From IMG/VR virus record IMGVR_UViG_3300046721_000236: a stretch of 44,053 bases of DNA. One strand, written 5' to 3'. Source of the stretch: a virus. Positions 4,761 to 38,896 of this stretch are shown piece by piece (positions within the stretch are counted from its first letter, which is position 1; each line of letters starts with the position of its first letter). Position numbers and translations under genes: made by a program. A model generated the notes under the pieces. It did not search any database and was not told the DNA's origin. It saw nothing but the letters and a program-made list of their open reading frames with translations.

Positions 4761-4779
4761 CGGAAAAGGAGAAACGACC

Positions 4780-9809: not shown

Positions 9810-9810
9810 G

Positions 9811-20080: not shown

Positions 20081-20586
20081 AACGGCTCGTAGAGGATGTG
20101 CGCTGACATGGCCCCGGAGGTGCCCGTGTCGTTCTTTGCCGAGAGCGACATCTCGCCCAAGCTGGCCGTATTCCCCAGCCCGACTGGCCGCGCCTGGGTG
20201 TTGCTGTAGTTCAGCCTGACAATGCCGCCGAAAGCGTTGTAGGACGGCGTCAGGAGATAGCCCTGCGTCAGCCGCTGCGGCCCGGTGCTGGCCGCCGTGA
20301 ACGTCACCACAACGGTAGCCAGTGTGCTGGCCGAGCCATCGAGCGGACGATCGGCAGCTGGTGCGGCGAGCGCCGTTGGCGTGACGGCAATCGTCGAGTG
20401 CAGCGCCAACACCATGTCATTGATGGACGAGGCAGACGCCTGCCCACCCATGTAGAGTTCTTCAATGGCCCAGCGCTGCGTGCCGCTGCCGCCCTTCATG
20501 GCCATATAGGTGGCGTTGGCCATCGTGCTGGTATCGGCCGTGTTCGTCGGCGTGAATGTGGTAAAGGTGAAGGTGCGCAGAGCCAT
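20077..20586 (-). CDS. Hypothetical 169-aa beta-rich protein, distant paralog of ORF 26271..26771
   Basis: MALRTFTF... versus MADRTYTI.... Similar length, and the same position directly after a Zn-ribbon gene. Confidence 0.5.
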   Translation of the reverse strand: MALRTFTFTTFTPTNTADTSTMANATYMAMKGGSGTQRWAIEELYMGGQASASSINDMVLALHSTIAVTPTALAAPAADRPLDGSASTLATVVVTFTAASTGPQRLTQGYLLTPSYNAFGGIVRLNYSNTQARPVGLGNTASLGEMSLSAKNDTGTSGAMSAHILYEPF

Positions 20587-20903
20587 TAGAGCGATCTCCT
20601 TTTATCAAGCACGAGGTCTAATTTGCCGTCGCCGCAGGCGTCGATCAGCTCCTGCACTGTGAAGCAGGCATTGGTGGCGTGGTAGGTCGCTTCGCAGGCG
20701 CGACAGATATAGCGGGCGCATTTCGGGCATCGGCCGAGCGGCACCGTGCGACTGGGGTTCAGGATGACGTTCCGCTGGCAGTGATTGCAGACATGCAAGG
20801 CGGATTCAAACGTGCGACCCTCTGGCACCTCCGGCGTGCCAGGGGAATTCCGATGGTCAATGAGAATGACGCCTTCGTAGGACCGTTGGGAATGGATGGG
20901 CAT
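20586..20903 (-). CDS. Cys-rich zinc-ribbon protein (105 aa)
   Basis: CNHC ... CPKCARYICRAC ... C...C cluster. 1-nt overlaps with both neighbouring genes. Confidence 0.55.
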   Translation of the reverse strand: MPIHSQRSYEGVILIDHRNSPGTPEVPEGRTFESALHVCNHCQRNVILNPSRTVPLGRCPKCARYICRACEATYHATNACFTVQELIDACGDGKLDLVLDKRRSL

Positions 20904-21199
20904 CAGGCGATCCGCTGCTTCGGCGGGATGATGACGTTCGGCACCGTCGCCACCTGCATCGTCACGGCAATGGCATTTGGGCCGGTAAACGTAAACGCCA
21001 CGAGGGTATAGTTCGTTTCGGCCGCCGTGGGGAAATAGTTATACAAGCCGTTGCCTTCCACCTGAATGGACCCGAGTCCCAGCGCCTGCGTGCCCCCGTC
21101 GCCCGTCACATAGACGGTTACGACGCCCGCGAAGGGGGAGCCGTTGCCGACGTCAAGCATTTCCGCGCCAATCACTTGACCGGCGACCCCTTTAACCAT
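20903..21199 (-). CDS. Stand-alone copy (98 aa) of the 95-aa N-terminal domain of ORF 14605..15642
   Basis: Start set at ATG 21199 (MVKGVAGQVIGAEM...). The track ORF extension to 21283 overlaps the upstream gene. Confidence 0.6.
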   Translation of the reverse strand: MVKGVAGQVIGAEMLDVGNGSPFAGVVTVYVTGDGGTQALGLGSIQVEGNGLYNYFPTAAETNYTLVAFTFTGPNAIAVTMQVATVPNVIIPPKQRIA

Positions 21200-21222
21200 G
21201 AAAGCGCGTGTAGTGTAACACC

Positions 21223-22917
21223 TTAGTGCGTCTCCGGCTGTGACTTCGACGGCCCGAGGAGCTGATTGCTGTTCGCCGCCCATTCGGGCTTGAAATGCAC
21301 AATGGCGCTGTCATTCCGGCGCGGCTTCACGGATTGCGCCGACCAGTTCGGTTGCCATTGCAGCATGATGGTGCTGAGATTCGCGCCACGCAGCGGCATG
21401 GCCGGCGCCGGGGCCGTGCCCGTCGGCAGCGTGGCGATCATCGTCGGCGCGTGTTGCGCCGGCCAGGCCTGCGCCCACTGGCTGACGAGGACGATCGTTT
21501 CCGTGACCGACAGGAATGATGATGGCGCCGGCGGCGTCCCTGGCGACGGCTGAATCACGGCAATCGGCCGCCGCTGCGCGGCCCACGCTGTCGGCCATGA
21601 ACCGACTATCTCCGAGATATCGGAGGCGCTGAGCGGGCCAATACTCGGCGGGGCGCCTTGGCCCTGCACCACGACCACGGGGCGGGCCTGCGCAGGCCAC
21701 GCCGTCGGCCATGCGTTGACCAGCTCCGATAGTTCGGCGGCGGTGGCTGGTCCTTGTGGCCCCGGTGAATTACCCGTCGAGGGCTGGACAACCACGATCG
21801 GCCGTGACTGCGCGGCCCATGACGTCGGCCACGTCCCAATAGTGAGGAACAGATTGATCTCGCCCATCGGCCCAATAGGCGTAGGTTGATTGACCGGCGG
21901 CGGCACGAACCATGCCGCGAGTTTAGGCGGACTCTGAGCCGGCCAATCCGTGAGCCATGACCGTTGAATGGCAAGATCGGTGACGCTGAGCGGGCCTTGG
22001 ATTGGCGGCGGATCGCCCGTCAACGGCTGCACGAGGGTCGTTAAACGCTGTGGCTGACTCCAGCCGATCGGCCACGCCTGCACAATCGCGCGATCAGTCG
22101 ATGTCAGTGGCCCGATGCTCGGCGCTGATGCAGTCGTTTGCACAACAGCGATGGGGCGCGATTGCGCCGACCATGTCTGTGGCCATGTCAGCCAGATCTG
22201 GGCAAGTTCAGATGCCGATAGCGGGCCTTGCGGAGACGGTTGATCCCCACTGGACGGCTGCACGAGTGAGATGAGTGCTTGCGGCTGCGCCCATCCGAGC
22301 GGCCATGAGCCCACCAGTGATTGCCGCACGGGAGGCGGCAGATCGCCCGTGCGGAACGTCGCAATGAGCGTGGGCGCATGCTGGGCGGGCCAATCCTGCG
22401 TCCAAGCTCGCTGGATCGCGATCTCCGTTGGCGTGGTCGGGCCAACGACCGGAGGCTGATCTGGATTATCTGGCGCAATCGTCCACGTCGTAACAACTTC
22501 AATATCGATCGCGTCATACCACGCCGACAGGAGGCTGCCCGGCAATCGAACAGCCGGCAAGAACGTCGATGCACCAGTCGGCGGGGGAATGACGGCGGCA
22601 TTTATGGGTGGCTTCTGCGCCGGCCACGTATCAGGTGCCCAATTTGTCGTTGCAAGTCGATAGGTCTGGCGCGGCGGCGGTTGCTGCCCATAGACGAGGG
22701 TCAGCGGCGCGATCTTGTTCTGCTGATTGTTCGGCGCTTGCAGGCGTGGTTCTAAGGATGTCGGCCATGCCGCCAACACGGCCACCATTGCCAATGTGGC
22801 CTGCACTTGACGCAGCGGGGGCTGATCGCCCGTTGAGGGCTGCGGCTCATGCGGAATCGGCGGCGCATAACTGGCCGATCCTTGTGAAGGCGGAGTCGGC
22901 GGATAGAAAAAGGCCAT
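21223..22917 (-). CDS. Trp/Pro-repeat protein (564 aa, about 10 repeats of about 40 aa), large paralog
   Basis: WxxxW(P/A/S)AQ motif at residues 172, 205, 245, 282, 321, 363, 403, 441, 481 and 521. C-terminus HFKPEWAANSNQLLGPSKSQPETH. Confidence 0.7.
   Translation of the reverse strand: MAFFYPPTPPSQGSASYAPPIPHEPQPSTGDQPPLRQVQATLAMVAVLAAWPTSLEPRLQAPNNQQNKIAPLTLVYGQQPPPRQTYRLATTNWAPDTWPAQKPPINAAVIPPPTGASTFLPAVRLPGSLLSAWYDAIDIEVVTTWTIAPDNPDQPPVVGPTTPTEIAIQRAWTQDWPAQHAPTLIATFRTGDLPPPVRQSLVGSWPLGWAQPQALISLVQPSSGDQPSPQGPLSASELAQIWLTWPQTWSAQSRPIAVVQTTASAPSIGPLTSTDRAIVQAWPIGWSQPQRLTTLVQPLTGDPPPIQGPLSVTDLAIQRSWLTDWPAQSPPKLAAWFVPPPVNQPTPIGPMGEINLFLTIGTWPTSWAAQSRPIVVVQPSTGNSPGPQGPATAAELSELVNAWPTAWPAQARPVVVVQGQGAPPSIGPLSASDISEIVGSWPTAWAAQRRPIAVIQPSPGTPPAPSSFLSVTETIVLVSQWAQAWPAQHAPTMIATLPTGTAPAPAMPLRGANLSTIMLQWQPNWSAQSVKPRRNDSAIVHFKPEWAANSNQLLGPSKSQPETH
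21328..22440 (-). repeat. In-frame tandem repeats of about 120 nt (about 40 aa) inside the Trp/Pro-repeat gene
   Basis: Unit consensus W-P-x-x-W-x-A-Q-x-R-P-I-x-V-V-Q-P-S-x-G-x-x-P-x-P-Q-G-P-L-S-x-x-E-L. Boundaries are approximate. Confidence 0.7.
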
Positions 22918-22918
22918 G

Positions 22919-23602
22919 CTATTGCGTCAGAATACCCACCATATACGTCTGATACGGCACAAAGACCGGCGGCGCCCCACTCGTCGGCCGCATGGCAAAG
23001 GAAAAGGACTCATACCAGAACAGGGCTGATGTGACGTTGACCGTCCCCGTCGCGCCAGCCGTGCTGATCGTTTTTGAGAACGCCACCCAGGCCGCCACGT
23101 TCCCCGTTTCACTCACATAGCCAGTCGGGGCGGTATACCCTTGGTTCTGGTGCTGGTTGTTCAGCGCGATGATATGCACCGCGCCATTGGTGACAGTGGT
23201 AATGGACGGAATCGCGAGCGGAGACGAGGGGTTAAAGCCGAAATCCGTCCATGCGCTGTCGTTGACATCAATCGGCGTAGTACCGTCAGTGCCAGACCAT
23301 TCCGACAGATAGATCGTGGTCGTGCTCGTGTTGGTCGTCCACGTCCACGTATAGGAGGTCGGCTCAGCGCCGCCAGCGACCTTGTAGGCCACGACAACGC
23401 TATATGAGCCCGGCGAGTAGTTCAGTTGCGGCAGCGCCGTCCAGCCGCTTGGATGAGTGATCGTATGCGGTTGGCTGTCCGTAAAAAACAGCGCCCAGAG
23501 CAGATTCCCACTCGTCGGCGTGGCGCCCAGCGTCCCGCTCGTAGCCGAGGTTAGGTTCTGGAACCCATCGCGGTAGACGTCCTGTACCTTGGCGATCGCC
23601 AT
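22919..23602 (-). CDS. Hypothetical beta-rich appendage protein (227 aa)
   Basis: ORF track. Thr/Ser/Gly-rich. Lies within the appendage cassette. Confidence 0.5.
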   Translation of the reverse strand: MAIAKVQDVYRDGFQNLTSATSGTLGATPTSGNLLWALFFTDSQPHTITHPSGWTALPQLNYSPGSYSVVVAYKVAGGAEPTSYTWTWTTNTSTTTIYLSEWSGTDGTTPIDVNDSAWTDFGFNPSSPLAIPSITTVTNGAVHIIALNNQHQNQGYTAPTGYVSETGNVAAWVAFSKTISTAGATGTVNVTSALFWYESFSFAMRPTSGAPPVFVPYQTYMVGILTQ

Positions 23603-24996
23603 TAGGGGGACAACAGGAGATCGATGTTTTGGACGAGCGGCGGATAGCCCATCGGGAGATTCACGCCGCTAAAGTCTACGGTATTCGTCCCGCTCGTCAA
23701 ATCGGCAAACGTAATCGGAATGGCGAGGCATAAATACCCGCCGCACCCGGCGTCGTTAATGAGCATCGAGACTTCGTCTGACGTCAAGAGACGTGTGCGA
23801 AATGTGCCGCCATTGAATTTGTATTTTAGCCCCCATGTCGTATCCGGGGTGGTCGCGACGGTCTGCACGAAGAGATTGAGCGTCAGCAGCGCCGACGACA
23901 TTCCAGAGAGATTCACAGTCCCCGTAAACGTCAGCGGGCTAATGAGCGCCGTTGGACTCCACACCCCCACGGCGCGGTTGGTCCCATCCGAAACCTCGTA
24001 GCCGAGATTGCGATAGGTATAGGGATAATCATTCTCCGTCGTATCCGTTGAGGTGCCACTGGTCGTATTGTCTGGAATCTCATAGGCTCGAGGCGCCGAC
24101 AACAGCGGGCCGTCAAAACTGACATTATCCCAATGATAGACATGGCTGGCGGACGCGGCAGCATATTTCACGGACGCATGATTCCGCGCGCCAAGATGCA
24201 CATACCCGCGCGTAAATGGTAAGGTCATGGGCGCCGAATAGATCAAACGAAAATTGCTGAATGTGAAACCGTCCGGCGAATAGTCCGACATGCGCACCTC
24301 GACCAGCGTCGTCGACAGGCGCACTTCGATCCTGTTCAGCTTGTCTTGTAATACGGTTGGCCGGCTCGTGCCTGTGACCGTGACGGTCGGACTCAGTACC
24401 GTTTTCGCGAAGGTCGTATAGACATGCGCCGTCCCGATCGTCGTATAGCCGGTCGCTGTATCAGACCATGAGAGCGCGAGCCCGTTTTTCGGCAATGGTC
24501 CCGTTTCATCATTATCGACAATGTGAAACGATGGACAGGGCACGGGTTCATCCGTAAAATCCATTTGGATATATGTCCACAGCGCATTGCCACAGACCGC
24601 ATCCACATCGAATCGAATCGACCCCGCACGGCCGGCAATATCGAACGGCTGCCGGATCATATAACTGTGATTCCCGTAGTTCTGGATCACAATACCTGAC
24701 ATGAGCGTCCCTGGATTCGTCGAGGTGCCATCGCAGATGAGGGAATCATCTGGCGGGTAGACGCTGGTCCCTCCGGCAAACGTCGCACGGCAGGCCGCTG
24801 GAATCGTTGCGGGTCGCGTCTTATTCACACGATCGGTGCTGATGCCATTCGCGGTCAGCCGGCCCACGCCCCAGATTGTCGGGTCCAGATCGCCGGCCCT
24901 CCCCCGCGTGGCCGAAGGTTGGCTGAATGTTTCGAGAAATGTAGGCACGAAGGGCACCGCGCCACGGCCGCGCGTCGTCCGCAGGTAATACAGCAT
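23602..24996 (-). CDS. Hypothetical 464-aa beta-rich protein next to the GH30 gene (possible carbohydrate-binding or hydrolase function)
   Basis: ORF track. 1-nt overlaps with both neighbours. No motif recognised. Confidence 0.5.
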   Translation of the reverse strand: MLYYLRTTRGRGAVPFVPTFLETFSQPSATRGRAGDLDPTIWGVGRLTANGISTDRVNKTRPATIPAACRATFAGGTSVYPPDDSLICDGTSTNPGTLMSGIVIQNYGNHSYMIRQPFDIAGRAGSIRFDVDAVCGNALWTYIQMDFTDEPVPCPSFHIVDNDETGPLPKNGLALSWSDTATGYTTIGTAHVYTTFAKTVLSPTVTVTGTSRPTVLQDKLNRIEVRLSTTLVEVRMSDYSPDGFTFSNFRLIYSAPMTLPFTRGYVHLGARNHASVKYAAASASHVYHWDNVSFDGPLLSAPRAYEIPDNTTSGTSTDTTENDYPYTYRNLGYEVSDGTNRAVGVWSPTALISPLTFTGTVNLSGMSSALLTLNLFVQTVATTPDTTWGLKYKFNGGTFRTRLLTSDEVSMLINDAGCGGYLCLAIPITFADLTSGTNTVDFSGVNLPMGYPPLVQNIDLLLSP

Positions 24997-26261
24997 TAGA
25001 CGCCGGTCCCTGTAAACGTCGTCACGCTATTTGGCGCGAGACTGGCCGTAAAGATATTGCGCACGACGGGCACGGTCGACAATGTCACGAGATTATTCGA
25101 GGCATCCGTGAGGTGCGGCGTCATCGTCGGCGGCGTCGAGCCGAGCCCCAGCAATCCCACTTGTTTCGTCACGGTCGTGCCATTGGTATTAATCGCCACG
25201 AGCACACACTGTCCGTTGCTCGGATTGCGATACGCCGTGAGTGATACACCGCTGACGGTTCCCAACGTGCCGACGCGCACATATCCCGGCCGCACAAACT
25301 TACTGAAATTCCCCATCACGAAAAACCGTTTCGTAGTCGGCACAATATCGTTGTTATCGCCAATCAAGCCTTGATTCGACGCATCATGGCCATAAATCCA
25401 CCACCAATGCCACGCATTGACTTGGCTATTTGCGATGCAGTCGTGAATCCAGCCGGCCACAGTGAGCGCATTCGCCATACTGCCGTCGAAGGCTTCGAAG
25501 GACGACATCTCCGTTTGCCAGTTCGTATGCCCAGCAATGGCCGATGTCGTGCCGCCATATTGATGCCAGGCGCAAATATCGAGATACGGCGCGGCCGTGC
25601 CATCGGCTTGTACCGCGCTGACATAGCCAGGATTGAGCGAGGCGGCGGCCGGCTCCGCCAGAATTAACCGAGGCCGAGGAGAAAGCGCCGCCAATTTCGG
25701 CCCCAGCACCTTGACGAAGTTCGTCATTTCAGCGGTCGTATAGAGCATCGACTCATACGACGCCGTAAAATCTGGCTCGTTTTGAATCGAGAGCGCATAG
25801 AGCGTAACGCCCGCATTTATGACGATATTCGCTTGAAAGCCCGCGAGACGTGTCGCCCAATCGTCATAGTTGATGACGAGTAAATGACCGCCGCCGGTTT
25901 CGCTGCCATTGTCTTTCCACGCCGCCGGGCCGGTCCAAGGCGTGGCCCAAATGAGCGCCCCGCGTGCCGCCGCCTTCGTCAGATTGGAATAGGCGCCACG
26001 GAAGAGGGTGCCATCGCTGGCGATATCCGTGCGCAGAAATGTCAGGCCGATCTGACCTGGGCCATTGAGAAAAAACAAATCCGCCCAGGCATCCGTCAGC
26101 GGGACAAAGCCCAGATAGGCATCTGAGGCGCCAAACCCATCTATTGTTTGCTGGACATTCCCGAAATCCATTGTGAGATCGGGCGCAAAGACGGGGTCCG
26201 CAACGTGACTGCGCGTCTGCCGGATTTGATAGGTGCCCATCAGCCCGGAACCGATGGGCAC
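24996..26261 (-). CDS. Glycoside hydrolase family 30-like enzyme
   Basis: QQTIDGFGASDAY near the N-terminus, SIQNEPDF (acid/base Glu), NWQTEMSSF (nucleophile Glu), AWHWWW, and a C-terminal beta-sandwich ...VSLTAYRNPSNGQCVLVAINTNGTTV. GTG start. Confidence 0.8.
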   Translation of the reverse strand: MPIGSGLMGTYQIRQTRSHVADPVFAPDLTMDFGNVQQTIDGFGASDAYLGFVPLTDAWADLFFLNGPGQIGLTFLRTDIASDGTLFRGAYSNLTKAAARGALIWATPWTGPAAWKDNGSETGGGHLLVINYDDWATRLAGFQANIVINAGVTLYALSIQNEPDFTASYESMLYTTAEMTNFVKVLGPKLAALSPRPRLILAEPAAASLNPGYVSAVQADGTAAPYLDICAWHQYGGTTSAIAGHTNWQTEMSSFEAFDGSMANALTVAGWIHDCIANSQVNAWHWWWIYGHDASNQGLIGDNNDIVPTTKRFFVMGNFSKFVRPGYVRVGTLGTVSGVSLTAYRNPSNGQCVLVAINTNGTTVTKQVGLLGLGSTPPTMTPHLTDASNNLVTLSTVPVVRNIFTASLAPNSVTTFTGTGV

Positions 26262-28992: not shown

Positions 28993-30237
28993 CTAACCGC
29001 ACACTTTACATGCCAGCTCTTGCCGCAGCACCGCCGTGCCATACAGCACGTCAAGGCGCTGAATCCACTGGTCTGTGGTCGCCACGTAATCGCGGATGCA
29101 GCGAATCGCCTTGCCGGATTTCTTCGACGCCGCCCGATACGCCCTGTCCGTTCCGCCCGGCAGCGGCATATCCACCATCGCCAGCGTGCCAAAGTTCTTG
29201 TTGGCGACCATGTTGAACGGGGTTGACTTGCTGAGGATGGTCGAGAACGATGCAGCCGGCGTGTCGTAGACATAGACGGCTGTCGAGACGGCTGGCAGGT
29301 TCGTCACGTTCTGCAACTGCTGGCCGGGACCATACATCGCAGGCGCAAAGGGAATCACCATCGTGCCGCCCGAATCGCTCGTGGTCGCCGTGACCACGAA
29401 CTGCATCGGCGATCCCATATTCTGATAATTCTGGGGATTGACGAGGTTGACCGGCGTCGTCGTCGACACGAAGCTAATCGTATCGCCCGCGTTGAGTGTG
29501 CCCGTCGTCCAACCCGTCGTGCTGATCGTCGTGGCGCCGTTGGCCGGAGCTGTGCCCACGACCGGCGTCGAGGATCCGAGCGCCCCGACGGTCTGCACGT
29601 AGATGTTCTGGTCCATGTCCCAGGCCATGCCGAGCGTGCCCGATTCCGTCATGCTGCCCGATTCATACTGCGCGCTGATGGCTTTGCCGCTGTTATACAG
29701 CGTCTTCAAGTTGTCCATCAGGGTGAAATCTGCGACGGGCGAGAGCCAGGCGTAGCGGTCTTCGGACGGGCAGGCGTTGTTGTCCAGCTTCACCTTGGCG
29801 AGTCCGTACGTCGTGAGCGTCGTCGGCGTCGTGCCTGGCGTGCCGACCGAGTTGTTCAAGCCCTGCGCCAAGTTGCAGACATCTTGGTCGATCAGGTTGT
29901 TGAGGCGCACGATCTGGGGCTTGAGGACGCGTTCGCGGTAGTTATCGATGTCGAGGGCGAGGTTCTGAGACGACACCTGCGTATCGATGCCGCGCTGATA
30001 CGACAGCGTCAGCGGCACGAACGTCTCAGTAATCGCTTCGATCTGGGCGGCCTGTCCGAGACGCCCCAGATACCGGGGTGGCTTGCGGATATTCAACGTC
30101 TGGCCGAGGACGGTCCCACCAAAATCAAACTGGTCGGAATACTCGCTGTTGATGCGCTGCATCACCTTGTCGGTGTTCTCGAGCACATCCAGCGCTTCAA
30201 ACGTTACGATATCGTTGGTGAGGAACGTATTCGCCAT
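28993..30237 (-). CDS. Major capsid protein (P22 coat-like, HK97 fold)
   Basis: 414 aa, directly after the scaffold candidate. MANTFLTNDIVTFEALDVLENTDKVMQRINSEYSDQFDFGGTVLGQTLNIRKPPRY... follows the P22 gp5-family N-terminal pattern. Confidence 0.7.
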   Translation of the reverse strand: MANTFLTNDIVTFEALDVLENTDKVMQRINSEYSDQFDFGGTVLGQTLNIRKPPRYLGRLGQAAQIEAITETFVPLTLSYQRGIDTQVSSQNLALDIDNYRERVLKPQIVRLNNLIDQDVCNLAQGLNNSVGTPGTTPTTLTTYGLAKVKLDNNACPSEDRYAWLSPVADFTLMDNLKTLYNSGKAISAQYESGSMTESGTLGMAWDMDQNIYVQTVGALGSSTPVVGTAPANGATTISTTGWTTGTLNAGDTISFVSTTTPVNLVNPQNYQNMGSPMQFVVTATTSDSGGTMVIPFAPAMYGPGQQLQNVTNLPAVSTAVYVYDTPAASFSTILSKSTPFNMVANKNFGTLAMVDMPLPGGTDRAYRAASKKSGKAIRCIRDYVATTDQWIQRLDVLYGTAVLRQELACKVCG

Positions 30238-30252
30238 CGGGCGGCCCTACTC

Positions 30253-31239
30253 TTATCGACGCGCTTTCCGTTCAGCCTCCCGCCGCGCTTTGTAGGCGGC
30301 GTAATCGCCCTTGCGGGCAGCTTCGGCAGACGGGGATGGCGTCGTTGGGCTACCGGACCCCACTGGCTGAATTGGGGCAGGCGGCGTCATCGTTCCGGCG
30401 GTCGGCGTCGAGGCCAGCGGTGCGGCGCCGTTCGTCGGGGCCACCGTGGAGAGCAGCATTCCAAACTCAATCGGATTCGCTTGCGCGAGCTTTTGAGCGA
30501 GGGCGCCGTCCTTCACGATCGCATATTGCACATGCTCACTCTGCGGATGCTGCAAGATGGCCTGAATCTTCGCATGATCCATCGGCACTTGCGAGCCGGG
30601 TCCGGTCGTGCGCATCGCATCGAAGTCTGCATACACTTTCCGCCCCTTTGCCCAGGTGCTTTCGGCGTGGTTCAGAAAGTCGCGAGAGGCCCGATCCGCT
30701 TCGATGCTTTGCCGGATACGGGCGTCGATGCCGGATTGCTGCTCTTCAGCGACCCAGCGCGCAGAGTCTAGCACGAATTCTGCGTAGGTTTTATATTTCG
30801 TGCCGATCTCGTCTTCCGTGGGCTGCGGACGGTTCCCCGAAGGGAGCCCCGAATCTCCCCGTTCGGGGCCAGACGGTGAAGGCGGCGCCGGGGCCGCAGC
30901 CGCAACCGGGGCGGTCGCGGGCGGGGTGGGTGCCGTAGGAGGCTGAACCTTCGCCCGAAGCTCCGCAAGCTCGCGCTCGTAGGTGGCCGCTTTCGCTTCG
31001 GCCTCCTTTCGGGCTTTCGTCAGTTCAGCAAATCGCGCTTGGCCACGGGATTGTTTGACGGGCTCGGCAGGCGTTGATGGAGTTTCAGTCGGCGCTTCGA
31101 CGGGCTCTGGTTCATGCCGCTCCATCACGTCGGCCAGCGCCTCCGATGTGACGCCCATCCCGCTCAGCGTGCGCCCGGTCGCGGATTCGTGCGTGGTAAT
31201 CGCGTTTGGGTCCGGTGCTGCCGCTTCTGTTTCTGCCAT
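30253..31239 (-). CDS. Scaffolding protein candidate
   Basis: Immediately upstream of the coat gene. Has a coiled-coil (FAELTKARKEAEAKAATYERELAELRAKV), Pro/Ala-rich linkers and a basic C-terminus. Confidence 0.55.
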   Translation of the reverse strand: MAETEAAAPDPNAITTHESATGRTLSGMGVTSEALADVMERHEPEPVEAPTETPSTPAEPVKQSRGQARFAELTKARKEAEAKAATYERELAELRAKVQPPTAPTPPATAPVAAAAPAPPSPSGPERGDSGLPSGNRPQPTEDEIGTKYKTYAEFVLDSARWVAEEQQSGIDARIRQSIEADRASRDFLNHAESTWAKGRKVYADFDAMRTTGPGSQVPMDHAKIQAILQHPQSEHVQYAIVKDGALAQKLAQANPIEFGMLLSTVAPTNGAAPLASTPTAGTMTPPAPIQPVGSGSPTTPSPSAEAARKGDYAAYKARREAERKARR

Positions 31240-31454
31240 TAGCCCTTCTTGCTATGGAGGTATTTCCCGAGGTTACGGTGCGGATGCCCGCTCGCCTTCG
31301 CGACGTGCGCCGGCTTGCCCTTCGATGAACCCACAGCAAAATCGTGGAGCTGGCTCATGCTCATGCTGGAGCGCACCTTTTTTGCCATCGCGAAATTCGC
31401 TCCATGTTCCGCCGCACGCATGAGGTTGGCCTGAGCCTTTGACTTGGCGGGCAT
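31239..31454 (-). CDS. DUF3008-like small basic protein (71 aa)
   Basis: MPAKSKAQANLMRAAEHG...SMSMSQLHDFA...KGKP resembles the MPAKSKAQ...SMS..L.EFA pattern. GGAG lies 6 nt upstream. Confidence 0.55.
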   Translation of the reverse strand: MPAKSKAQANLMRAAEHGANFAMAKKVRSSMSMSQLHDFAVGSSKGKPAHVAKASGHPHRNLGKYLHSKKG

Positions 31455-31479
31455 GTCTGCTCCGTGTTAGTTTCTCGCC

Positions 31480-31659
31480 ATGATTGAACTACTGCTGATC
31501 CTTATCGTCTGCGGGGTCGCGCTCTACCTCGTCGAAACCTACATCCCCATGAGCCCGCCCATCAAGGTCGTCATCCGCGTCGTCGTCGTGCTCCTGCTCG
31601 TGCTCGTCCTGCTCCGGGCCTTCGGCATCGGGGACATCCCCGTACCCAGGGTGCGATAG
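31480..31659 (+). CDS. Small two-TM membrane protein (59 aa, Thivi_2564-family-like), antisense to the late operon
   Basis: MIELLLILIVCGVALYLVETYIPMSPPIKVVIRVVVVLLLVLVLLRAFGIGDIPVPRVR. Third codon positions are very C/G-rich. TTGGCG-18-(TGt)TAGTTT lies 6 nt before the ATG with no SD. Below the track cut-off. Confidence 0.5.
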   Translation: MIELLLILIVCGVALYLVETYIPMSPPIKVVIRVVVVLLLVLVLLRAFGIGDIPVPRVR

Positions 31660-31806
31660 CTCGTATTCCATCACCGCCTCCCGCGCCTCGAGCACGGCCT
31701 CAGCACTGCGCCCGATACAGCACAGACCGGGGCCAAGCTCCATATACAACCGCGTCCGCATGAGCGGCGAGAGTTCAATCTCTGCCGGCTCAGGCATCAG
31801 CGACAT
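31489..31806 (-). CDS. Questionable ORF (105 aa) whose C-terminal half is the codon-for-codon antisense of the 59-aa membrane ORF
   Basis: 1-nt overlap (TGATG) with the upstream Big_2 gene supports it. The acidic tail DEHEQEHDDDADDD is the expected shadow of a Val/Leu-rich sense frame. Confidence 0.3.
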   Translation of the reverse strand: MSLMPEPAEIELSPLMRTRLYMELGPGLCCIGRSAEAVLEAREAVMEYELSHPGYGDVPDAEGPEQDEHEQEHDDDADDDLDGRAHGDVGFDEVERDPADDKDQQ

Positions 31807-32234
31807 CAGGGCTGCGGCACCGGCTCCGACGCCGTAATCTCGATCGACGTCGCTTCAGCCGCCGTCACGGTAATGTCGAACGTGCCCTGAATGTTCCGCA
31901 CCCCAGGCGTCAGATCCGCATCGGCAATGACCGTCACAGTGCAGGCGCCGATCGCCGTGCCCTTGACGAGCGCCGTGAGGCCCGTCGCATCCGGCGCGAT
32001 GGACACGACCGCCGGATTCGACAGCTGCCATTCGGGCACGCCATCGACGGTTGACCCTTTCGGCAGGGGCGTGGCGGTGAGGGTGGTTTCTTGCGTGGTG
32101 CTCATGGAGATAGGCATCGGATTCTGCTCCTGTATCGGGCCGCTAGTAATCTGCAACGATTTGGCGCCGGGTTTCTTGTTCGGCGACACGATGGTAACGC
32201 GCTTCTTCTTGATCACCACGATAATTGTGCTCAT
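31806..32234 (-). CDS. Big_2 (bacterial Ig-like group 2) domain protein, possible capsid decoration
   Basis: PAVVSIAPDATGLTALVKGTAIGACTVTVIADADL...GTFDITVT. Confidence 0.6.
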   Translation of the reverse strand: MSTIIVVIKKKRVTIVSPNKKPGAKSLQITSGPIQEQNPMPISMSTTQETTLTATPLPKGSTVDGVPEWQLSNPAVVSIAPDATGLTALVKGTAIGACTVTVIADADLTPGVRNIQGTFDITVTAAEATSIEITASEPVPQP

Positions 32235-32881
32235 TGCACCACGACGGTCATGGGCCGCGTCGCCCCGCCAGCCGTGCAGCCATTCACATCCGTCGCCTGC
32301 ACGGTCAGTTGATACGTCCCCGCCGGCACGGTGGCCGTGAAATAGGAACCCGCGACGTCGTTGAGGCGTGCGCCATTCAATCGGCCCTGCTCCACGCCAT
32401 TAAACAACACGCTGACCATCGTCACATCGCTTTTACTTTGCAGTAGCGAATACAGCACTTGCCCGACGCCACCCGTCGGTAGTGTGCGCGCCCACGACCC
32501 GACTGTGAGTGACACATTCGCCGGATTCGCACAGCCCGACATCACAAAGGGCGCGGATTTCGCGCTTTCGGCTGAATTATTGACCGTATCCGTGGCCGTC
32601 ACTTGCGACGAGGCGCCCGGCACCGTTGCGCCGATGGATGATACCTGCGTGACGGGCGCTTGACAGGATGCCGTGACTGGCGAACCAGTATCCGTCGTCG
32701 AGCACGTCACCATCGTGAGGGTCGCCGTGGATTGCGTCGTCACACCCGGAGACGTTACATACACTTTATAGGTAAACCCTTGCGCCACGGCCGCACTTGT
32801 GACGTTCGGCTGACTCCAGAAGATCTGCGCCTGCGCCGGGGAGGCGATGACGAGCAAACCCACGAGCAGGCGGGCTCTCAC
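32231..32881 (-). CDS. Signal-peptide protein with Ig/FN3-like beta-sandwich domains
   Basis: GTG start in a GTGA overlap. MRARLLVGLLVIASPAQA-QIFW. Ends ...GSYFTATVPAGTYQLTVQATDVNGCTAGGATRPMTVVVQ. Confidence 0.6.
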   Translation of the reverse strand: MRARLLVGLLVIASPAQAQIFWSQPNVTSAAVAQGFTYKVYVTSPGVTTQSTATLTMVTCSTTDTGSPVTASCQAPVTQVSSIGATVPGASSQVTATDTVNNSAESAKSAPFVMSGCANPANVSLTVGSWARTLPTGGVGQVLYSLLQSKSDVTMVSVLFNGVEQGRLNGARLNDVAGSYFTATVPAGTYQLTVQATDVNGCTAGGATRPMTVVVQ

Positions 32882-33069
32882 TTGCCGTCTCGCAGGATTT
32901 CCAGTTTGGCTTCAATCTCGCGGATATCGGACGCCGCATCCTGCACGGCATGCCAGTCGCCCGATTCCAGCTTGATCTGACAATAGGCAATCAGGCCCGC
33001 TTTCCGCTTCTGGAGTTCGACGATCAGTCGATCTTGCGGATTTGGCGAAAACTTCGTCGCGGTATTCAT
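32878..33069 (-). CDS. Hypothetical helical protein (63 aa)
   Basis: ORF track. ATGA/GTGA overlaps on both sides. Confidence 0.5.
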   Translation of the reverse strand: MNTATKFSPNPQDRLIVELQKRKAGLIAYCQIKLESGDWHAVQDAASDIREIEAKLEILRDGK

Positions 33070-34244
33070 TGCCCACTTCCGTTCGGCTGCGCCTGCTGCT
33101 GGGCGGCTATGGTAGCACCAACCGCCGGGGGCAGCAGGCCATACTTCTTCAGGATGTCGATCGTCTTCGCATCGAACACAACGAAATTACGCGACACATT
33201 CCCGGCGGCCTCGGCGGCCTTTTCGGCAGCAGCTTGTGTCGGGTATGGTGTCATCGAACCTTTAATAAACCAGTTGTCGCCTAGTTTGTTCACGCCTGCC
33301 GTAATACGCGAGCCCTGATCGAGATATTTGATGCCGGGGATGCCTGCTTCTTTCAGTTCCAGCGATGCCACGTTTGGCCCTGCTATGCCTTCATCCTGTT
33401 TGAGCCGGTCAGCAATATGGTGATATGCCTCAGCGCCGGTCATAGTGTCGCGGGGAGGCGGTTTCCAAAATCCTCCGCTACTCATATACCGCTCTTGCGC
33501 GTTTGGTAGGAGCAGAGCTTTAACTTTTTCCTGCACGTCAGGATGCTGTTGACTCAGCGGCTTATCCCAATCGAGGAACTGATCCGGGTGCGCGTTGATC
33601 CCCACTTCATACATCTTTGGCGTATTGACCTGAATCAGCGAGGGATCAACGCTTTGCATTGTCTTGATTCTTGATTGCCACAACGCCGCTTGATCTGGCG
33701 CATACGTTTTATTGAAATCAACGGCTTTTTGCGCTTCGGCCATCCATGCGTCTTTACCCATCGCTTTCATATCCGCTAGATCGCGATGCATGGATGTGCC
33801 AGAGGGATATTCAATATTCTGATATCTCACCGGCGCAGCATCGCGGGCTGATCCTGTAAAGGCCTTCTTATACTCCTCAGCCACCTGTGGATTTTCCGCG
33901 AAATACAACCCGTGCCCGTAGGCTTGCGCGCCTTCCCCCGTCCCGATCTTGCTCGTATCGAATGCCTCGAAATCATGCGGGCTTCCGTGATACGCCTTGA
34001 TCGCCGCTGCAAATCGTGGGAACCGCTGCGCCACCGCATCAATCAGCCCGCCGCCCATCGGCCCGACATCCATCGCCGCGCCGACGCCCATCACCTGTTG
34101 CGGATCATCCAGCCCGAGCCAGCTCACCATCTTCCGTAAAATGCCCTGCCCAGGCGCATCGAACACCGACGCGCCATGCGGGTTGATACTCGCGGGCAGC
34201 TCCGGCTTCTGGATGACGAGCGGATTAGGCACCGCCGCCCCCAT
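33066..34244 (-). CDS. ART-PolyVal-like ADP-ribosyltransferase-domain protein encoded next to the portal gene
   Basis: AIKAYHGSPHDFEAFDTSKIGTGEGAQAYGHGLYFAENPQVAEEY (H and Y elements) and the distal LKEAGIPGIKYLDQGSR...NFVVFDAKTIDILKKY. Start set at ATG 34244. The track extension to 34328 is Arg-rich and lies inside the portal gene. Confidence 0.55.
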   Translation of the reverse strand: MGAAVPNPLVIQKPELPASINPHGASVFDAPGQGILRKMVSWLGLDDPQQVMGVGAAMDVGPMGGGLIDAVAQRFPRFAAAIKAYHGSPHDFEAFDTSKIGTGEGAQAYGHGLYFAENPQVAEEYKKAFTGSARDAAPVRYQNIEYPSGTSMHRDLADMKAMGKDAWMAEAQKAVDFNKTYAPDQAALWQSRIKTMQSVDPSLIQVNTPKMYEVGINAHPDQFLDWDKPLSQQHPDVQEKVKALLLPNAQERYMSSGGFWKPPPRDTMTGAEAYHHIADRLKQDEGIAGPNVASLELKEAGIPGIKYLDQGSRITAGVNKLGDNWFIKGSMTPYPTQAAAEKAAEAAGNVSRNFVVFDAKTIDILKKYGLLPPAVGATIAAQQQAQPNGSGQ

Positions 34245-36552
34245 TCGGTTGCTGCTTCGCTTGTTCCGCCGCCTGTTGCGCCATCTCCGCTTGATGCGCC
34301 TGATCGCTTTCCTGCGCCTGCTGGTCAATCACGGCGCCCTGCGATCCCTGCTCCAAGGCTTGCTGATGCGCCTGCGCCGCGAGATCCTTTTCATGCTGCT
34401 GCTTCATGCCTTGCATGCCGACCTCGTGCGCGTGCTGCAAACCCGTCGCGAGCCGTTCTTCCGCTGCCTCCGCCACTGGATCCAGCTGCGACTTGCTGGC
34501 CGAGATACGCGCGACGGCGATCGAAGTCGCGTTCTTCATCATTTGCAGCGCCAATTCCCGATCCGCATCCGTGTCAGCTTTATGCTTCGCAATCTGTAAA
34601 TCGGTCTGCGCCTTGATCTGCGTCTCCTGCAAACTGCCCTGCTGCTCGGCCTGCTTCGTCTGAATGAACTGCTGCGCCTTCTGCAACTCAGCCTGCATCT
34701 GCTGCATCTGCGCCTGCACAGCCGGCGGAATCTGCGGCTGATCGTTTTTGTCCTGCAACTGCGGCGGCAGCGCGTTCCGCAGCTTCTCCGCAATCTTGTG
34801 ACTACCCGGAAACGACAACTGCTCCACGTAATCCGGCGTGGCCACGGCGGCCATCTCTGGCGGCAGATGCGGAATCAGTTCGCCCAGCGCCTGCGCGCCC
34901 TCTTCCCGCTTCGTCGCCGTCGCCTTCCCGACCGAGACGGTCACGGCATAGCGCCCGTTGTTCAAGTCGTAAAACTTGTGCAGGCTGCCCTCGAGCTGCG
35001 CGATTTCCGGCGTGATGTTCGGCGGCGAGGGTTGCGGCTGCCCGTTCGGCCCCTCCTGGTAGGGCTGACCGACCATGACCTGTTCAGGCTCATCGTCCAT
35101 CCCCAGAATGTGAATAATCTGCCCCTTCGTCGTAATCTTCGGGATGATCTCGACCGCCAATTCCCCCGCGTAAATCAGCGCCCGCTTCACATTGTCTGGG
35201 TAATTACTGTTGGCGAGGTCTGATTGCGCCTGCAAGGCTTGCAACGCCCGCCCGCTCCGCTCGTTCGGGTTTGTATTCCCCAGTGACGCATCGCCCGTCG
35301 ACGTCGTCGCCTTAATCGCATCCTCGCTGACCCGCATCAATTCCACGGCGGCCTGGATCGGCGGCTCCGTCGTATCCAGCATCGGCGTCGGATACTCTTT
35401 CCCTTCCTGGTCCCACGGGTCAAACGGCAGATACGCGTGATTGATGATATTGCGCGTCTGCCAAATCTGCTTATAGTTTGCCACGCTCGCCGCCGCAATC
35501 ATCGGCGCGTTCTTCGGCGCCAGCGCGAAAATCTCCACGGCGCCGCTATACGTGTAGTTCACCATCCGCTGCGCGTCCATGCCCTCTTCAATCACGCCGC
35601 GCAGCCAGATCTTCCCGTCCACGTTCAACTCTTCGCCCAGAATCGGAATCAGCGGAATCCGCGAGCCGACCCAATCGAACGACTGCAACGATTGCACGGC
35701 GTTGATGATGTCGCACTTCACGCTGGGCACTTGCATGACGCGTTCAGCTTTGATGTCTTTCTTGTCATCAGGCTTTTCTTCAGTGACGGTCCCGTCTTGC
35801 AGTTGATACAGATGGCGCTTCGTGTAGACGATGCGGTAATACTCGGCAATCCTGATGCTCTCTTCACTCACCCATGAGGACCACTTCGACATATCGCCCG
35901 TGGACATGAAGGCCTCAAGCCCGCGCAGGTCCGCATCCGGCCACTTCCGTTCGTGCTCGTCCTTCGAGATATCATTCGTGACGAACGCCCAGCCCATATC
36001 GGAATATGTCGGCAGAACTGCCGAGGGATCACGATACACGCTCAGATTGTTCGTAATGCGCTCCATTCGCAGCGCCTGCCACATGGCCTCTTCGGTCAGC
36101 TCCCCGTCCCACGTCTCGTTGATGTAATCCGTGCGCAGCCGGAACCAGCCGATCCCGCCCTCAATCGCTTGGTCGGCCGCCCATTCAATCGGGGATTCCC
36201 CACGGCTGTTGTTCATCATCCAGCGCAGATAGCCCTTAAAGATATCGGCCGTATCCTGGTCGCTTGTGCCACCCGCCGGCAGCACGTCGAACCCAAAGCT
36301 GGCATTCTTGATGGTGTTGCTCACTTGCCGCACCGGCTGCGACAACCGATCGACCACGAGGCACGGCCGCGGTGGCTGCGGCGCCATCCCCTGCAGGCTG
36401 TTCCCGCCTTCGCGCGCCAGCTTAATCGCCGCCGGCCACTGGTCGCCCACCCGAAACTGTTTCGCGCGCACGATGCGATTGCGCTGCTGCTCTTCGGCTT
36501 CCGCCGCTCGGTTCCAGCGTTCGCGCGCTTCGCGAATCAGATCCTTCGCCAC
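34225..36552 (-). CDS. Portal protein (P22 gp1-like) with a Gln/Ala-rich C-terminal barrel
   Basis: GIGWFRLRTDY, IRIAEYYRIV, IPLIPILGEE and DAQRMVNY parallel P22 portal GVGAWRLVTDY, IQIAEFYEV, IPIVPVFGEW and DGQRLRNM. Has a long Q/A-rich helical tail. Confidence 0.85.
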   Translation of the reverse strand: MAKDLIREARERWNRAAEAEEQQRNRIVRAKQFRVGDQWPAAIKLAREGGNSLQGMAPQPPRPCLVVDRLSQPVRQVSNTIKNASFGFDVLPAGGTSDQDTADIFKGYLRWMMNNSRGESPIEWAADQAIEGGIGWFRLRTDYINETWDGELTEEAMWQALRMERITNNLSVYRDPSAVLPTYSDMGWAFVTNDISKDEHERKWPDADLRGLEAFMSTGDMSKWSSWVSEESIRIAEYYRIVYTKRHLYQLQDGTVTEEKPDDKKDIKAERVMQVPSVKCDIINAVQSLQSFDWVGSRIPLIPILGEELNVDGKIWLRGVIEEGMDAQRMVNYTYSGAVEIFALAPKNAPMIAAASVANYKQIWQTRNIINHAYLPFDPWDQEGKEYPTPMLDTTEPPIQAAVELMRVSEDAIKATTSTGDASLGNTNPNERSGRALQALQAQSDLANSNYPDNVKRALIYAGELAVEIIPKITTKGQIIHILGMDDEPEQVMVGQPYQEGPNGQPQPSPPNITPEIAQLEGSLHKFYDLNNGRYAVTVSVGKATATKREEGAQALGELIPHLPPEMAAVATPDYVEQLSFPGSHKIAEKLRNALPPQLQDKNDQPQIPPAVQAQMQQMQAELQKAQQFIQTKQAEQQGSLQETQIKAQTDLQIAKHKADTDADRELALQMMKNATSIAVARISASKSQLDPVAEAAEERLATGLQHAHEVGMQGMKQQHEKDLAAQAHQQALEQGSQGAVIDQQAQESDQAHQAEMAQQAAEQAKQQPNGGGGA

Positions 36553-37014: not shown

Positions 37015-37403
37015 CGTTTCATCCCCTTCAAGGCTTCGCGTTCCGCTTCAATCCCCGGCAGCGCCTGCCGCATCGTCTCTCGCCACTTCAGCGCATTCTT
37101 CGGGGCCAATAAGAGCTTGGCCTGCACGCGCGGCGGGCTCGCTAGTAACTCGAAATACGCAAAGATCGCATTGAGGGTGCCATCCTCTTCCCCAATCCGA
37201 TAGCCGCGCCAGATATCGCCCGCCACCTTGCGCCATTTCTCGCGCCCCTCGCACACAATCGTCAGCAACCGCGGCCGGTCCCGCTCAATCTGCCGGATGA
37301 ACTCCTGGATGTTGTCCGTCAACGCCCGCTCACGCGTCGTGCTGTAGCCGACAATGGGGAGGTCGGGCAGGTGGAACATTGGCACAGAGTCTACACCCTT
37401 CAT
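37011..37403 (-). CDS. Hypothetical protein (130 aa)
   Basis: ORF track. ATGA overlap with the TerL stop. Confidence 0.55.
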   Translation of the reverse strand: MKGVDSVPMFHLPDLPIVGYSTTRERALTDNIQEFIRQIERDRPRLLTIVCEGREKWRKVAGDIWRGYRIGEEDGTLNAIFAYFELLASPPRVQAKLLLAPKNALKWRETMRQALPGIEAEREALKGMKR

Positions 37404-38896
37404 CCCATCCAGCTTTGGCTAAACCCGCTAAACGACGGCTGCGGCACCGGCTCTTCTTTCTTCTTCCGCGCCACGGTCTGCGCAAACGTCAGCGCCAGCG
37501 CGTCCCCTTCATCCGGGCTCGGCACGTCTCGCGCCGCCATCTCTTTCTTCGACTCCAGCCATACCCGCTGCTTCAAATCCTCCCGCAACCCTGGCGCCGT
37601 CAGGTCGTTCTCGAGCCGCGGGGACGTGTCAATCGCCCCGTTGACCAGCCAGTCCTTCATCCGCCCCCACATCATGTCGCGCATATACCGGTATTTCTTG
37701 TCAGGACTGTCCGCGCCAAAGTTCACTTCGAGGAGGTTAGTGAAGCCCAATTCACGGAGTCGGGTCCCAACAGATCCTGCGATTCCTGCTGAGTCCAAGA
37801 ACAGCATAGATACGCGATGCCCTCCATAGCTGCCAGCCAGAACGTCACTGAGCCGGTTGGTGAGGACGGAAGGATCACGCGTGAGTTCACCGGCAATACG
37901 CACAGCAGGGATACTACGCGCGTCTCGACCACGTCTAAATCTGATGACGTTGCTATCCTTGCCTCCCCAGGCAAGGTCGCATCCAGCGACCAGCGGTTCA
38001 TCATCCAGCACCTCCACCTTCCGTTTCTGCGCCTCGCGCACGCGCACCGCATCAATAAACTGCGCATCCTCCGCATTCGGCGGCAAGCCTCGGACGCGTA
38101 CCCGGAACCGGTCGCTGTCCTCGCCCCAGTCTTCCAGCTGTTCCGCAATCAGCGCCTTGTTCGGAAACTGGCACGTCCGCGCATCAATCTGCCACGTCTT
38201 CCACCCGCGCCCTTTGCCCGCGAACACGATGTCGTGAAAGCTGCCCCTGCGTCTCGTCGGATTCCCAAACAGAAACTGCATCGGCTCCCCATCCGTCAAG
38301 CCGCCTTCTTGCACCTCGTGGATGATCTCCGGGACGTTGCTGTCTTCGTCGTTGATGTAAAAGCTCGTGCTCGCCGCATTGTGCTGGCCAGCGAAGCTCT
38401 CGCTGTTGTCCGGGTCGCACGTCTGCGGGCTGCACTTCCACTCTTCGCGATGGCCTTTGCGATACAGGATGGACGTGTTCAGCTCGAACCAGTCGCGCGT
38501 AATCGCCCGCTTGACCCATGTCGTAATCGAGGGCCACGTCTTATCCTGCAGCTGCGGCCCCGTGTTCGCCGTGATCACGCCCTTCGCATGGCGCCTCGTG
38601 CTCATGAGGAAGCTAACCAACATCCCCGTCAACGCGCCCTTCCCAATCCCGTGGCCGCTCGAGACAGCCGCGCGAATGGGCATCACGGGATGGACGCCAT
38701 CAAAGTCCCTCCGTTTAATCTCGCTCCCCAGCCACTCCAGAAACTCACATTGCCACGCGTCGGGCTCACGATAGTGCTGCAAGGGCCCTGGCTCGCCCCA
38801 GGGGAACGCGCCGCAGACCCAGGCAAGGGGATCCGCATAGAGGGACGCGCACCACTCCACGAGGTCGTCATCGTAGCTGCGTGATGGTGCGGGCAT
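37400..38896 (-). CDS. terL: Terminase large subunit
   Basis: Walker A-like SSGHGIGKGALTG, an ATPase core, and a C-terminal RNaseH-like nuclease (CDLAWGGKDSNV, FLDSAGIAGSV). 498 aa, upstream of the portal gene. Confidence 0.85.
   Translation of the reverse strand: MPAPSRSYDDDLVEWCASLYADPLAWVCGAFPWGEPGPLQHYREPDAWQCEFLEWLGSEIKRRDFDGVHPVMPIRAAVSSGHGIGKGALTGMLVSFLMSTRRHAKGVITANTGPQLQDKTWPSITTWVKRAITRDWFELNTSILYRKGHREEWKCSPQTCDPDNSESFAGQHNAASTSFYINDEDSNVPEIIHEVQEGGLTDGEPMQFLFGNPTRRRGSFHDIVFAGKGRGWKTWQIDARTCQFPNKALIAEQLEDWGEDSDRFRVRVRGLPPNAEDAQFIDAVRVREAQKRKVEVLDDEPLVAGCDLAWGGKDSNVIRFRRGRDARSIPAVRIAGELTRDPSVLTNRLSDVLAGSYGGHRVSMLFLDSAGIAGSVGTRLRELGFTNLLEVNFGADSPDKKYRYMRDMMWGRMKDWLVNGAIDTSPRLENDLTAPGLREDLKQRVWLESKKEMAARDVPSPDEGDALALTFAQTVARKKKEEPVPQPSFSGFSQSWMG

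Follow-up and report, generated by a model that had tools for sequence, protein, structure and literature searches.

The DNA analysed here, a 44,053-nucleotide stretch from an uncultivated P22-like phage (IMG/VR virus record IMGVR_UViG_3300046721_000236; hereafter the window), carries on its minus strand, at positions 33066-34244 and directly behind a P22-type portal gene, a gene for a 392-residue protein of the ART-PolyVal family of ADP-ribosyltransferases (ARTs). The best explanation of this gene, for which we see somewhat better than an even chance, is that it encodes a stand-alone ART-PolyVal-family protein that is made late together with the head proteins, loaded, ejected, and uses NAD+ (nicotinamide adenine dinucleotide) to mono-ADP-ribosylate a host target. 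Most likely, the protein is an enzyme that the virion carries and ejects and that uses NAD+, probably as a mono-ADP-ribosyltransferase whose H-Y-N site is non-canonical.

The family assignment, which an earlier note on this DNA had made from the letters, holds. The protein scores 35.0 bits against the Pfam family ART-PolyVal (PF18760; curated cut-off 31.2, E = 3e-8), and hhalign connects it to compact members of the family with 96.3% probability, strand 1 to strand 2. The Pfam match spans residues 83-184 and, owing to the inserts in the protein, reaches over no more than the N-terminal two thirds of the model (positions 8-98 of 140). An 89%-identical copy with the same PF18760 result is encoded in G001, the nearest virus record. 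For the window protein, a further match below threshold concerns DUF3990, another family of the ART clan. Searches with the ART protein yielded only unnamed families in PHROGs and no match in NCBIfam or among PDB sequences. In a search of 5.8 billion proteins, we obtained at least 7,963 homologues at E <= 1e-3, nearly all of them already annotated as PF18760 and most of them stand-alone proteins of 310-450 residues. The window gene is an ordinary member of this very large, catalogued family of phage proteins with an ART fold.

The PF18760 family owes its definition to Iyer et al. (2017): it is the protein-modifying domain met most often in polyvalent proteins, was described with an H-Y-D site and is predicted to be delivered together with the DNA (PMC5512222). 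A survey from 2022 found that phage ARTs often adjoin terminase, portal and capsid genes and are probably packaged in the head; head packaging of ARTs next to portal or terminase genes is hence an idea already in print (PMC9503650). The window protein resembles the domains described there as ART-PolyVal, Tox-ART-HYD2 or 'N4-like ART' (PMC5512222, PMC9503650) in that it passes the cut-off of the hidden Markov model (HMM), has its His in strand 1 and its Tyr in strand 2, comes from a phage and lies among head genes, and in that giant virion proteins contain its domain subtype as well. It differs from them in three respects: whereas these domains are described with an H-Y-D site, it has Pro303 at the position of their Asp in the motif GYDGI and Asn353 at the catalytic slot of PARP-type enzymes; its core is interrupted by three variable inserts; and it is a stand-alone protein with an N-terminal module of its own, not part of a polyvalent giant.

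The open reading frame (ORF) is free of stops on translation, and the four motifs on which the earlier note had built its case are found at the positions it gave, as residues 84-96 (AYHGSPHDFEAFD), 110-125 (GHGLYFAENPQVAEEY), 301-313 (GIPGIKYLDQGSR) and 353-364 (NFVVFDAKTIDI). The two halves that these motifs represent proved in alignments and models to be genuine core strands of an ART-type fold; for instance, IKAYHGS covers residues 82-88 and LYFA residues 113-116, both in the alignment and in an AlphaFold model of the full-length protein (predicted local distance difference test score, pLDDT, 77.6). The single insert of about 200 residues that had been read between them needs correction: the gap is real, but it measures 175 residues and contains the conserved stretch KMYEVGINAHPDQFLDWDKPLSQQ (residues 210-233) between two variable helical inserts. 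A third variable insert (residues 314-350) separates GSR from SRN. The protein has an ART-type core with six main strands, into which three variable inserts are set, in the following arrangement (alignment of 36 relatives):

33066..34244, minus strand: coding sequence of the ART-PolyVal-family protein, 392 residues; TGA stop at 33066-33068, alternative GTG start at 34232
34014..34244, minus strand: N-terminal module, residues 1-77 (..ASVFDAPGQGILRK..LGLDDPQQVMG..AQRFPRF); portable, also on non-ART bodies in the same slot of related phages
33855..34007, minus strand: part 1 of the ART core, residues 80-130; IKAYHGS with His86, the loop IGTGEGAQAYGHG, LYFAE with Tyr114, and a helix ending in Tyr125
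33636..33854, minus strand: variable insert 1, residues 131-203; a small hairpin and three helices, with mosaic versions in relatives
33546..33635, minus strand: conserved strand pair and motif, residues 204-233; KMYEVGI (Glu213) and LDWDKPLSQQ (Asp227), aligning with PARP1 GNMYELKH
33357..33545, minus strand: variable helical insert 2, residues 234-296
33306..33356, minus strand: strand GIPGIKYLD and QGSR, residues 297-313; Pro303 at the position of the GYDGI Asp of compact members
33195..33305, minus strand: variable insert 3, residues 314-350; a hairpin and a helix before the catalytic-slot strand, at the position of the ADP-ribosylating turn-turn (ARTT) loop
33138..33194, minus strand: last two core strands, residues 351-369; SR-N353-FVVFD, then TIDILKKY
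33069..33137, minus strand: C-terminal tail GLLPPAVGATIAAQQQAQPNGSGQ, residues 370-392; rich in Gly, Ala and Gln, with an ending of the KYGLLxP type

The inserts vary independently of each other. Insert 3 is missing from P0002, a relative with 90% identity, and from gp5 of Sulfitobacter phage phiGT1, while P0005, with 66% identity, has an identical insert 3 and a different insert 1. Such reassorted inserts on a near-invariant core look, at the level of sequence, like recombinational retargeting of surface loops.

The core is extremely conserved around the putative NAD site. Among 121 relatives, His86, Ser88, Tyr114 and Tyr125 are each present in all, Asp227, Asp309, Arg313 and Asn353 in 120 each, and Glu213 in 114; the G-rich loop TGEGAQxYGHG is retained in 119-121 of them at most positions. 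We compared a core-only profile (a search construct from which the inserts had been removed) with the catalytic fragment of PARP1, for which we used a query 100% identical to PDB chains. This hhalign comparison places GHGLYFAENPQVAEEY onto PARP1 GKGIYFADMVSKSANY and GKMYEVGI onto GNMYELKH (E = 7e-4, 41 columns). From the former pairing, Tyr114 equals PARP1 Tyr896 and Tyr125 equals Tyr907; His86 corresponds to H862. On these alignments, the NAD-site residues of PARP/diphtheria-type ARTs (His86, Tyr114, Tyr125) are kept. In that H-Y-E clade, the three residues line the nicotinamide pocket, and a catalytic Glu opens the penultimate core strand.

The third residue of the H-Y-(E/D) triad, which the earlier note had taken to be present as well, is not: the equivalent of Glu988 is Asn353, and the Asp of VVFD corresponds to PARP1 D993, which stands after the strand and is non-catalytic. 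When the C-terminal halves are compared, hhalign sets SRN353FVVFD onto PARP1 YNE988YIVYD in local and global modes alike, with a weak score (E = 0.08). By this weak alignment, Asn353 would occupy the Glu988 slot and Asp358 would match Asp993. The mapping is supported by relatives that have a Glu in the slot equivalent to Asn353, namely P0243, a compact relative that bears the N-terminal module as a tag (QEIAVFDD), and F116 gp60 (REFVVFS). In a compact ART-PolyVal set comprising JA13_190, a domain of F116 gp60, Caulobacter phage Jess A and SecTim467 gp180, the invariant residues are the His, a Phe, Asp186 in GYDGI and the Ile in QIKS. An alignment of the C-terminal halves brings GYDGI onto IPGIKY, so that the Asp of the compact members falls on Pro303. 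The conserved Asp of the H-Y-D configuration is absent from the window protein, a trait common to the whole subfamily, which is still within the Pfam family.

Three other residues were considered for the catalytic position and rejected. The Asp of GYDGI, with Pro303 as its replacement, lies in a strand that equals PARP1 HSVKGLG, and the catalytic slot follows one strand later, at Asn353. Glu213 of MYEV aligns with PARP1 E931 in NMYEL and not with E988, and other members of ART-PolyVal have Leu, Thr or Arg there. Asp358 of VVFD, finally, is the residue after the strand that equals D993, and is Ser, Asn or His in relatives.

A parallel to such a site is offered by the PARP-family mono-ARTs that lack the Glu (PARP10, PARP14 and others, with H-Y-I/L). 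The H-G-S and Y-F-A motifs of the window protein, and the Tyr 11 residues further on, match PARP1 H862, Y896 and Y907, and as in these enzymes, the Glu988 slot holds a non-acidic residue. By contrast, this residue is Asn instead of Ile or Leu, the similarity is remote, being confined to the 41 columns aligned by hhalign, and the PARP regulatory or helical domain is missing from the window protein.

Structure searches support, without proving, the ART fold, a split beta-sheet that binds NAD, for the modelled protein. With the full-length model, Foldseek retrieved no significant solved ART from the PDB, and PARP2 appeared at rank 24; a fold search of BFVD with the same model gave 31 matches at E <= 1e-3, among them many polyvalent giants and small proteins bearing the name ART-PolyVal. 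We also modelled a compact core, the 202-residue core of a natural homologue from the same portal-to-scaffold slot (L095:6861-7466; pLDDT 87, predicted template modelling score, pTM, 0.82). The top PDB match of this compact core, and its only significant one, is 9k3a_B, a chain from cyanophage A4's pre-ejectosome (E = 1.9e-4, probability 1.0, template modelling (TM) score 0.43 on the query). It is followed by tankyrase-2 (E = 0.054, probability 0.84), a RES toxin (E = 0.1), PARP4, PARP1, tankyrase-1 and Tpt1, all of which have an ART fold and match at marginal E-values. We infer the pocket geometry around Asn353 and the NAD-site residues.

Chain 9k3a_B is probably A4 gp27, a 1,717-residue protein and the sole one in A4 with YHGT...GTYFS, at about residue 1425. 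A profile of compact ARTs matches gp27 in hhalign with E = 3.9e-4, whereas the profile of the window subfamily matches neither A4 gp26 nor gp27, and a Pfam scan of A4 gp26-29 found no ART. The A4 chain is akin to the window protein in that no other solved structure matches the ART core significantly, and gp27 through its YHGT...GTYFS; gp27 differs in being a large ejection protein whose sequence similarity is near the detection limit and extends to compact ARTs only. The paper on the A4 pre-ejectosome structure makes no mention of a ribosyltransferase-like domain (PMC12002296). In the A4 sequence (Anabaena phage A-4L, KF356198, L008), the gene of the ejection protein gp27 lies at 20116-25269, and the ART-PolyVal-like signature around residue 1425 reads LYHGT...GTYFSKSSQAAS.

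The first 77 residues of the window protein are an element in their own right. A region search with them identified P0237, which shares 69% of its first 84 residues with the window protein and is unrelated beyond, has no Pfam domain, and is encoded exactly after a P22-type portal gene and before similar small ORFs, a scaffold gene and a coat gene. With phmmer, the same residues matched 29 clusters among 1.84 billion representatives, in 27 of which the module is located at the extreme N-terminus. Behind it, most clusters have an H-Y-N ART; others have a compact ART-PolyVal domain (P0238, covering Pfam model positions 8-133, and P0243), DUF7178 (P0245), or one of at least two unnamed bodies (P0237/P0241 and P0239/P0240/P0246). 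The bearers without an ART comprise P0237, P0239-41 and P0245-47, and several of their bodies end like the ART protein, whose ending is IDILKKYGLLPP (KYGLLxP-type). All four of the non-ART module genes that we examined begin at the stop of a P22-type portal gene; for P0239, P0241 and P0245, the gene that stops there matches the C-terminus of the window portal (E = 1e-13 to 1e-135). Among the loci with alternative bodies are L103 1283-3019 (P0245, with DUF7178), L097 3008-4126 (P0237) and L100 541-2460 (P0239), the latter two without a Pfam match. A second module-bearing ORF was looked for in the window, and none was found.

Since the module stands at the N-terminus in 27 clusters, is joined to ART and non-ART bodies, and is portal-adjacent, we describe the slot behind the portal, from these sequence comparisons, as a constant N-terminal module with a swappable body. 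The module has no match in Pfam, is not MuF and is previously undescribed; by inference, it loads its cargo into the capsid. A comparable arrangement is known from the MuF polymorphic toxins and from the T4 internal proteins with a capsid-targeting sequence (CTS), where a constant part for head loading goes with swappable cargo; in the relatives of the window phage, too, unrelated bodies stand behind one constant N-terminal part whose gene adjoins that of the portal. The difference is that the window module is neither MuF nor otherwise assigned in Pfam, that neither an immunity gene nor a protease site was identified with it, and that its role in loading is a putative one.

At 34225-34640 (minus strand), residues ~640-775 of the portal form an extension of ~130 residues beyond the P22_portal model that is rich in Gln, Ala and Glu. 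Similar repeats of the QQALEQG type are seen at the end of the portals upstream of all tag-bearing cargo genes. The C-terminal extension of the portal is a candidate binding partner of the cargo's N-terminal module.

That members of the subfamily travel in virions is indicated by Sulfitobacter phage phiGT1, whose gp5 (QLB38217.1) aligns with the window protein at 33% identity (E = 7e-42) and has all motifs of the subfamily, including TRNFVVFD. Mass spectrometry of purified phiGT1 virions detected gp5 with 12 spectra and a ratio of spectral count to molecular weight (SC/MW) of 0.29, compared with a contamination level of <0.2 set by the authors (PMC10386132 Table S3). The two proteins share the subfamily, its motifs and the interval between portal and scaffold in the head module, in addition to which gp5 has been found in virions; on the other side, gp5, annotated as hypothetical, lacks insert 3, has another N-terminal region, and is separated from the portal by one gene (gp4). 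Packaging, which the earlier note had raised conditionally, is plausible for the window ART protein by virtue of this homologue.

Related domains also occur within other phage proteins. Burkholderia phage AMP1 and Ralstonia phage RS-PI-1 have the same ART subtype in proteins annotated as internal virion or structural, and in Tunturi_5, it is present in gp273, beside a minor head protein gene. In vir555 (BK063671, Caudoviricetes sp., L002), a 1,975-residue protein encoded at 4582-10506 has the same subtype followed by an HExxH-like HEIGH, and its gene adjoins that of an internal virion protein; the host listed in the BK063671 record is Methanomicrobiales. Across the best 80 IMG/VR loci, which served as our neighbourhood sample, the ART-bearing ORF ranges from ~300 to 2,001 residues and occurs in both stand-alone and fused forms. 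The 77 upstream neighbours that we scanned include 17 P22-type and 4 SU10-type portals, 3 SU10 adaptors, 3-4 terminases and ~6 cell-wall hydrolases, which makes the portal the commonest assignable neighbour (21 of the 77 loci). Five further loci have the order large terminase (TerL)-ART-portal.

As a working model for the fate of such a protein, phage T4 Alt is instructive: it is a head-packaged ART that is injected with the DNA and modifies host proteins. However, Alt is a member of the R-S-E clade whose sequence is unrelated to the window protein, and the cleaved capsid-targeting sequence and the prohead protease of T4 are both not evident in the window. In the course of events that we propose, the protein would be synthesized late together with the head proteins, and its N-terminal module, perhaps with the KYGLLPP tail, would mediate loading into the procapsid at or near the portal. 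It would then exit the capsid with the DNA, bind NAD+ and, at an early stage of infection, mono-ADP-ribosylate a host target. As the Glu that acts as general base is lacking, catalysis would rely on the substrate or on one of the other conserved acids (Glu213, Asp227 or Asp309), in the manner of the mono-ART PARPs without Glu. The choice of target would be set by the variable inserts, above all by insert 3 before the catalytic-slot strand.

A wider reading, which we hold only tentatively and to which we give appreciably less than even credence, would make the portal-adjacent slot a general cargo port of this P22-like podophage group, in which the module, possibly together with the KYGLLxP motif, docks a body into the procapsid for ejection. 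The H-Y-N ART would then be one such body, active by means of a non-canonical acid (Glu213, Asp227 or Asp309) or of substrate-assisted chemistry, with its mosaic inserts retargeting it.

Several observations weigh against a packaged, active ART. The canonical catalytic acid is absent from the window protein, and Asn is unable to act as a base; the mapping of Asn353 to Glu988, in turn, relies on the weak half-alignment (E = 0.08) together with arguments from motif and topology. No solved ART among the top 36 PDB matches of the compact core reaches E < 1e-3 (E 0.05-3), PDB searches with the single protein, the full profile and the core-only profile (HMM) found no ART, and we found no reported activity for any PF18760 member in the literature. 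As to packaging, the phiGT1 gp5 signal is low, with some contaminants just below it in the same table (PMC10386132 Table S3), and about two thirds of the homologous loci have no recognisable portal neighbour.

Given the lost acid, the protein might be a pseudo-enzyme, that is, a structural protein of the virion or ejection complex which retains an ART fold without catalysis and either forms a block or spacer in the internal core or binds a host protein independently of NAD. The Asn in the Glu/Asp slot of 120 of the 121 relatives speaks for this, as does the best solved-structure match, a structural chain of the A4 pre-ejectosome; moreover, PARP13 and PARP9, members of the PARP family without the triad, are inactive. 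Yet the NAD-site residues and the TGEGAQxYGHG loop are conserved beyond what a scaffold would need, Asn353 is invariant and not drifting, and related compact forms keep a Glu or Asp, and we consider this explanation unlikely. A similarly small probability falls to a function as an NAD+ glycohydrolase, or as a binder or processor of NAD-derived signals, whose early delivery blunts NAD-based host immunity or depletes NAD+. Where the base residue is lost, some ART-fold proteins favour hydrolysis or binding at the expense of transfer, and the RES toxins, which have an ART fold and degrade NAD+, are among the closest solved folds of the compact core (E = 0.1). A virus-wide survey of NAD and ADP-ribose (ADPr) systems likewise proposes counter-immunity roles for head-linked ARTs (PMC9503650). 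However, motifs specific to RES, TNT or other NADase families are missing from the window protein, Pfam assigns it to ART-PolyVal only, and its variable surface inserts resemble a means of recognizing macromolecular targets.

A very unlikely alternative is that the protein stays unpackaged and acts late in the cytoplasm, on the assembly proteins or DNA of the phage or on a host factor, for example by shielding the portal or terminase from a defence system. The position of the gene proves only co-expression with head genes, some homologues adjoin lysozyme or adaptor genes instead of portals, and the alternative has been raised explicitly (PMC9503650). Against it stand the detection of a subfamily member in virions, the fusion of the same domain subtype into annotated internal virion or structural proteins, and the N-terminal module, which always comes directly after the portal gene, whatever body it carries. 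The virion-carried mono-ADP-ribosyltransferase is the explanation that we prefer.

The surroundings of the gene are those of a head module that, by its sequence matches (P22_portal, scaffold, P22 coat), is of the P22-like podophage type. Upstream and downstream of the ART gene, the following features were identified, in the order of the operon:

37400-38896, minus strand: large terminase gene, upstream of the portal and ART genes
34225..36552, minus strand: P22-type portal gene (PF16510, E = 4e-124); its stop and the ART gene's start overlap
31239..33069, minus strand: run of five small ORFs, coupled by overlaps, from the ART gene to the scaffold gene; the ATG of the first overlaps with the stop of the ART gene
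30253-31239, minus strand: scaffold gene, which together with the coat gene closes the head module
28993-30237, minus strand: P22-type coat gene, the end of the head module (28993..31239)

Genes resembling those of the P22 gp4 and gp10 connectors are situated further along, beyond the coat gene. P22-type head modules have the canonical order portal-scaffold-coat and contain no MuF gene. The premise from which the earlier note had set out, that the slot after the portal usually holds a MuF gene, is inapplicable to such a module, where the portal is followed straight by the scaffold; as these modules lack MuF, the ART gene has not replaced anything. The ART protein has no MuF or minor-head match in Pfam (E <= 10), PHROGs or NCBIfam. 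The ART gene and the five small ORFs are an accessory block between portal and scaffold. These ORFs encode 63 residues, 216 residues with a signal-peptide-like start, 142 residues with a weak Big_2 match, 105 very acidic residues, and 71 residues with a weak DUF3008 match. The small-ORF block is mostly kept in the close relatives L017-L021, and a similar run is seen in L097-L099, whose slot holds another cargo body.

At its start, the ART gene overlaps the portal gene by 20 nucleotides if translation begins with the ATG at 34244. The GTG at 34232 may, as its sequence context suggests, be the true start: it is preceded by a run of G, overlaps the portal stop by 8 nucleotides, and would yield MPNPLV..., similar to the MPGP start of many homologues. 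A longer frame with a TTG start, extending up to 34328, lies within the portal gene. At the end of the ART gene, the TGA stop and the ATG of the following ORF share bases (ATGA). Between 30000 and 39500, sites resembling promoters or terminators are not in excess over shuffled sequence. With overlaps at both ends and no such excess, the ART gene is one link of an overlap-coupled late operon, coupled in translation to both the portal gene upstream and the ORF downstream.

On its own, the window gene is an ordinary example. That head-packaged ARTs are widespread beyond T4 Alt has been a prediction since 2017. The subfamily to which the window gene belongs, however, has thousands of metagenomic members, an extremely conserved NAD site from which the catalytic Glu is missing, and one member detected in virions, and for these reasons is a good and tractable test case for the role of such proteins in the first minutes of infection. 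If the N-terminal module is a loading signal, it would explain how P22-like podophages recruit variable cargo, and it could serve to load foreign proteins into capsids.

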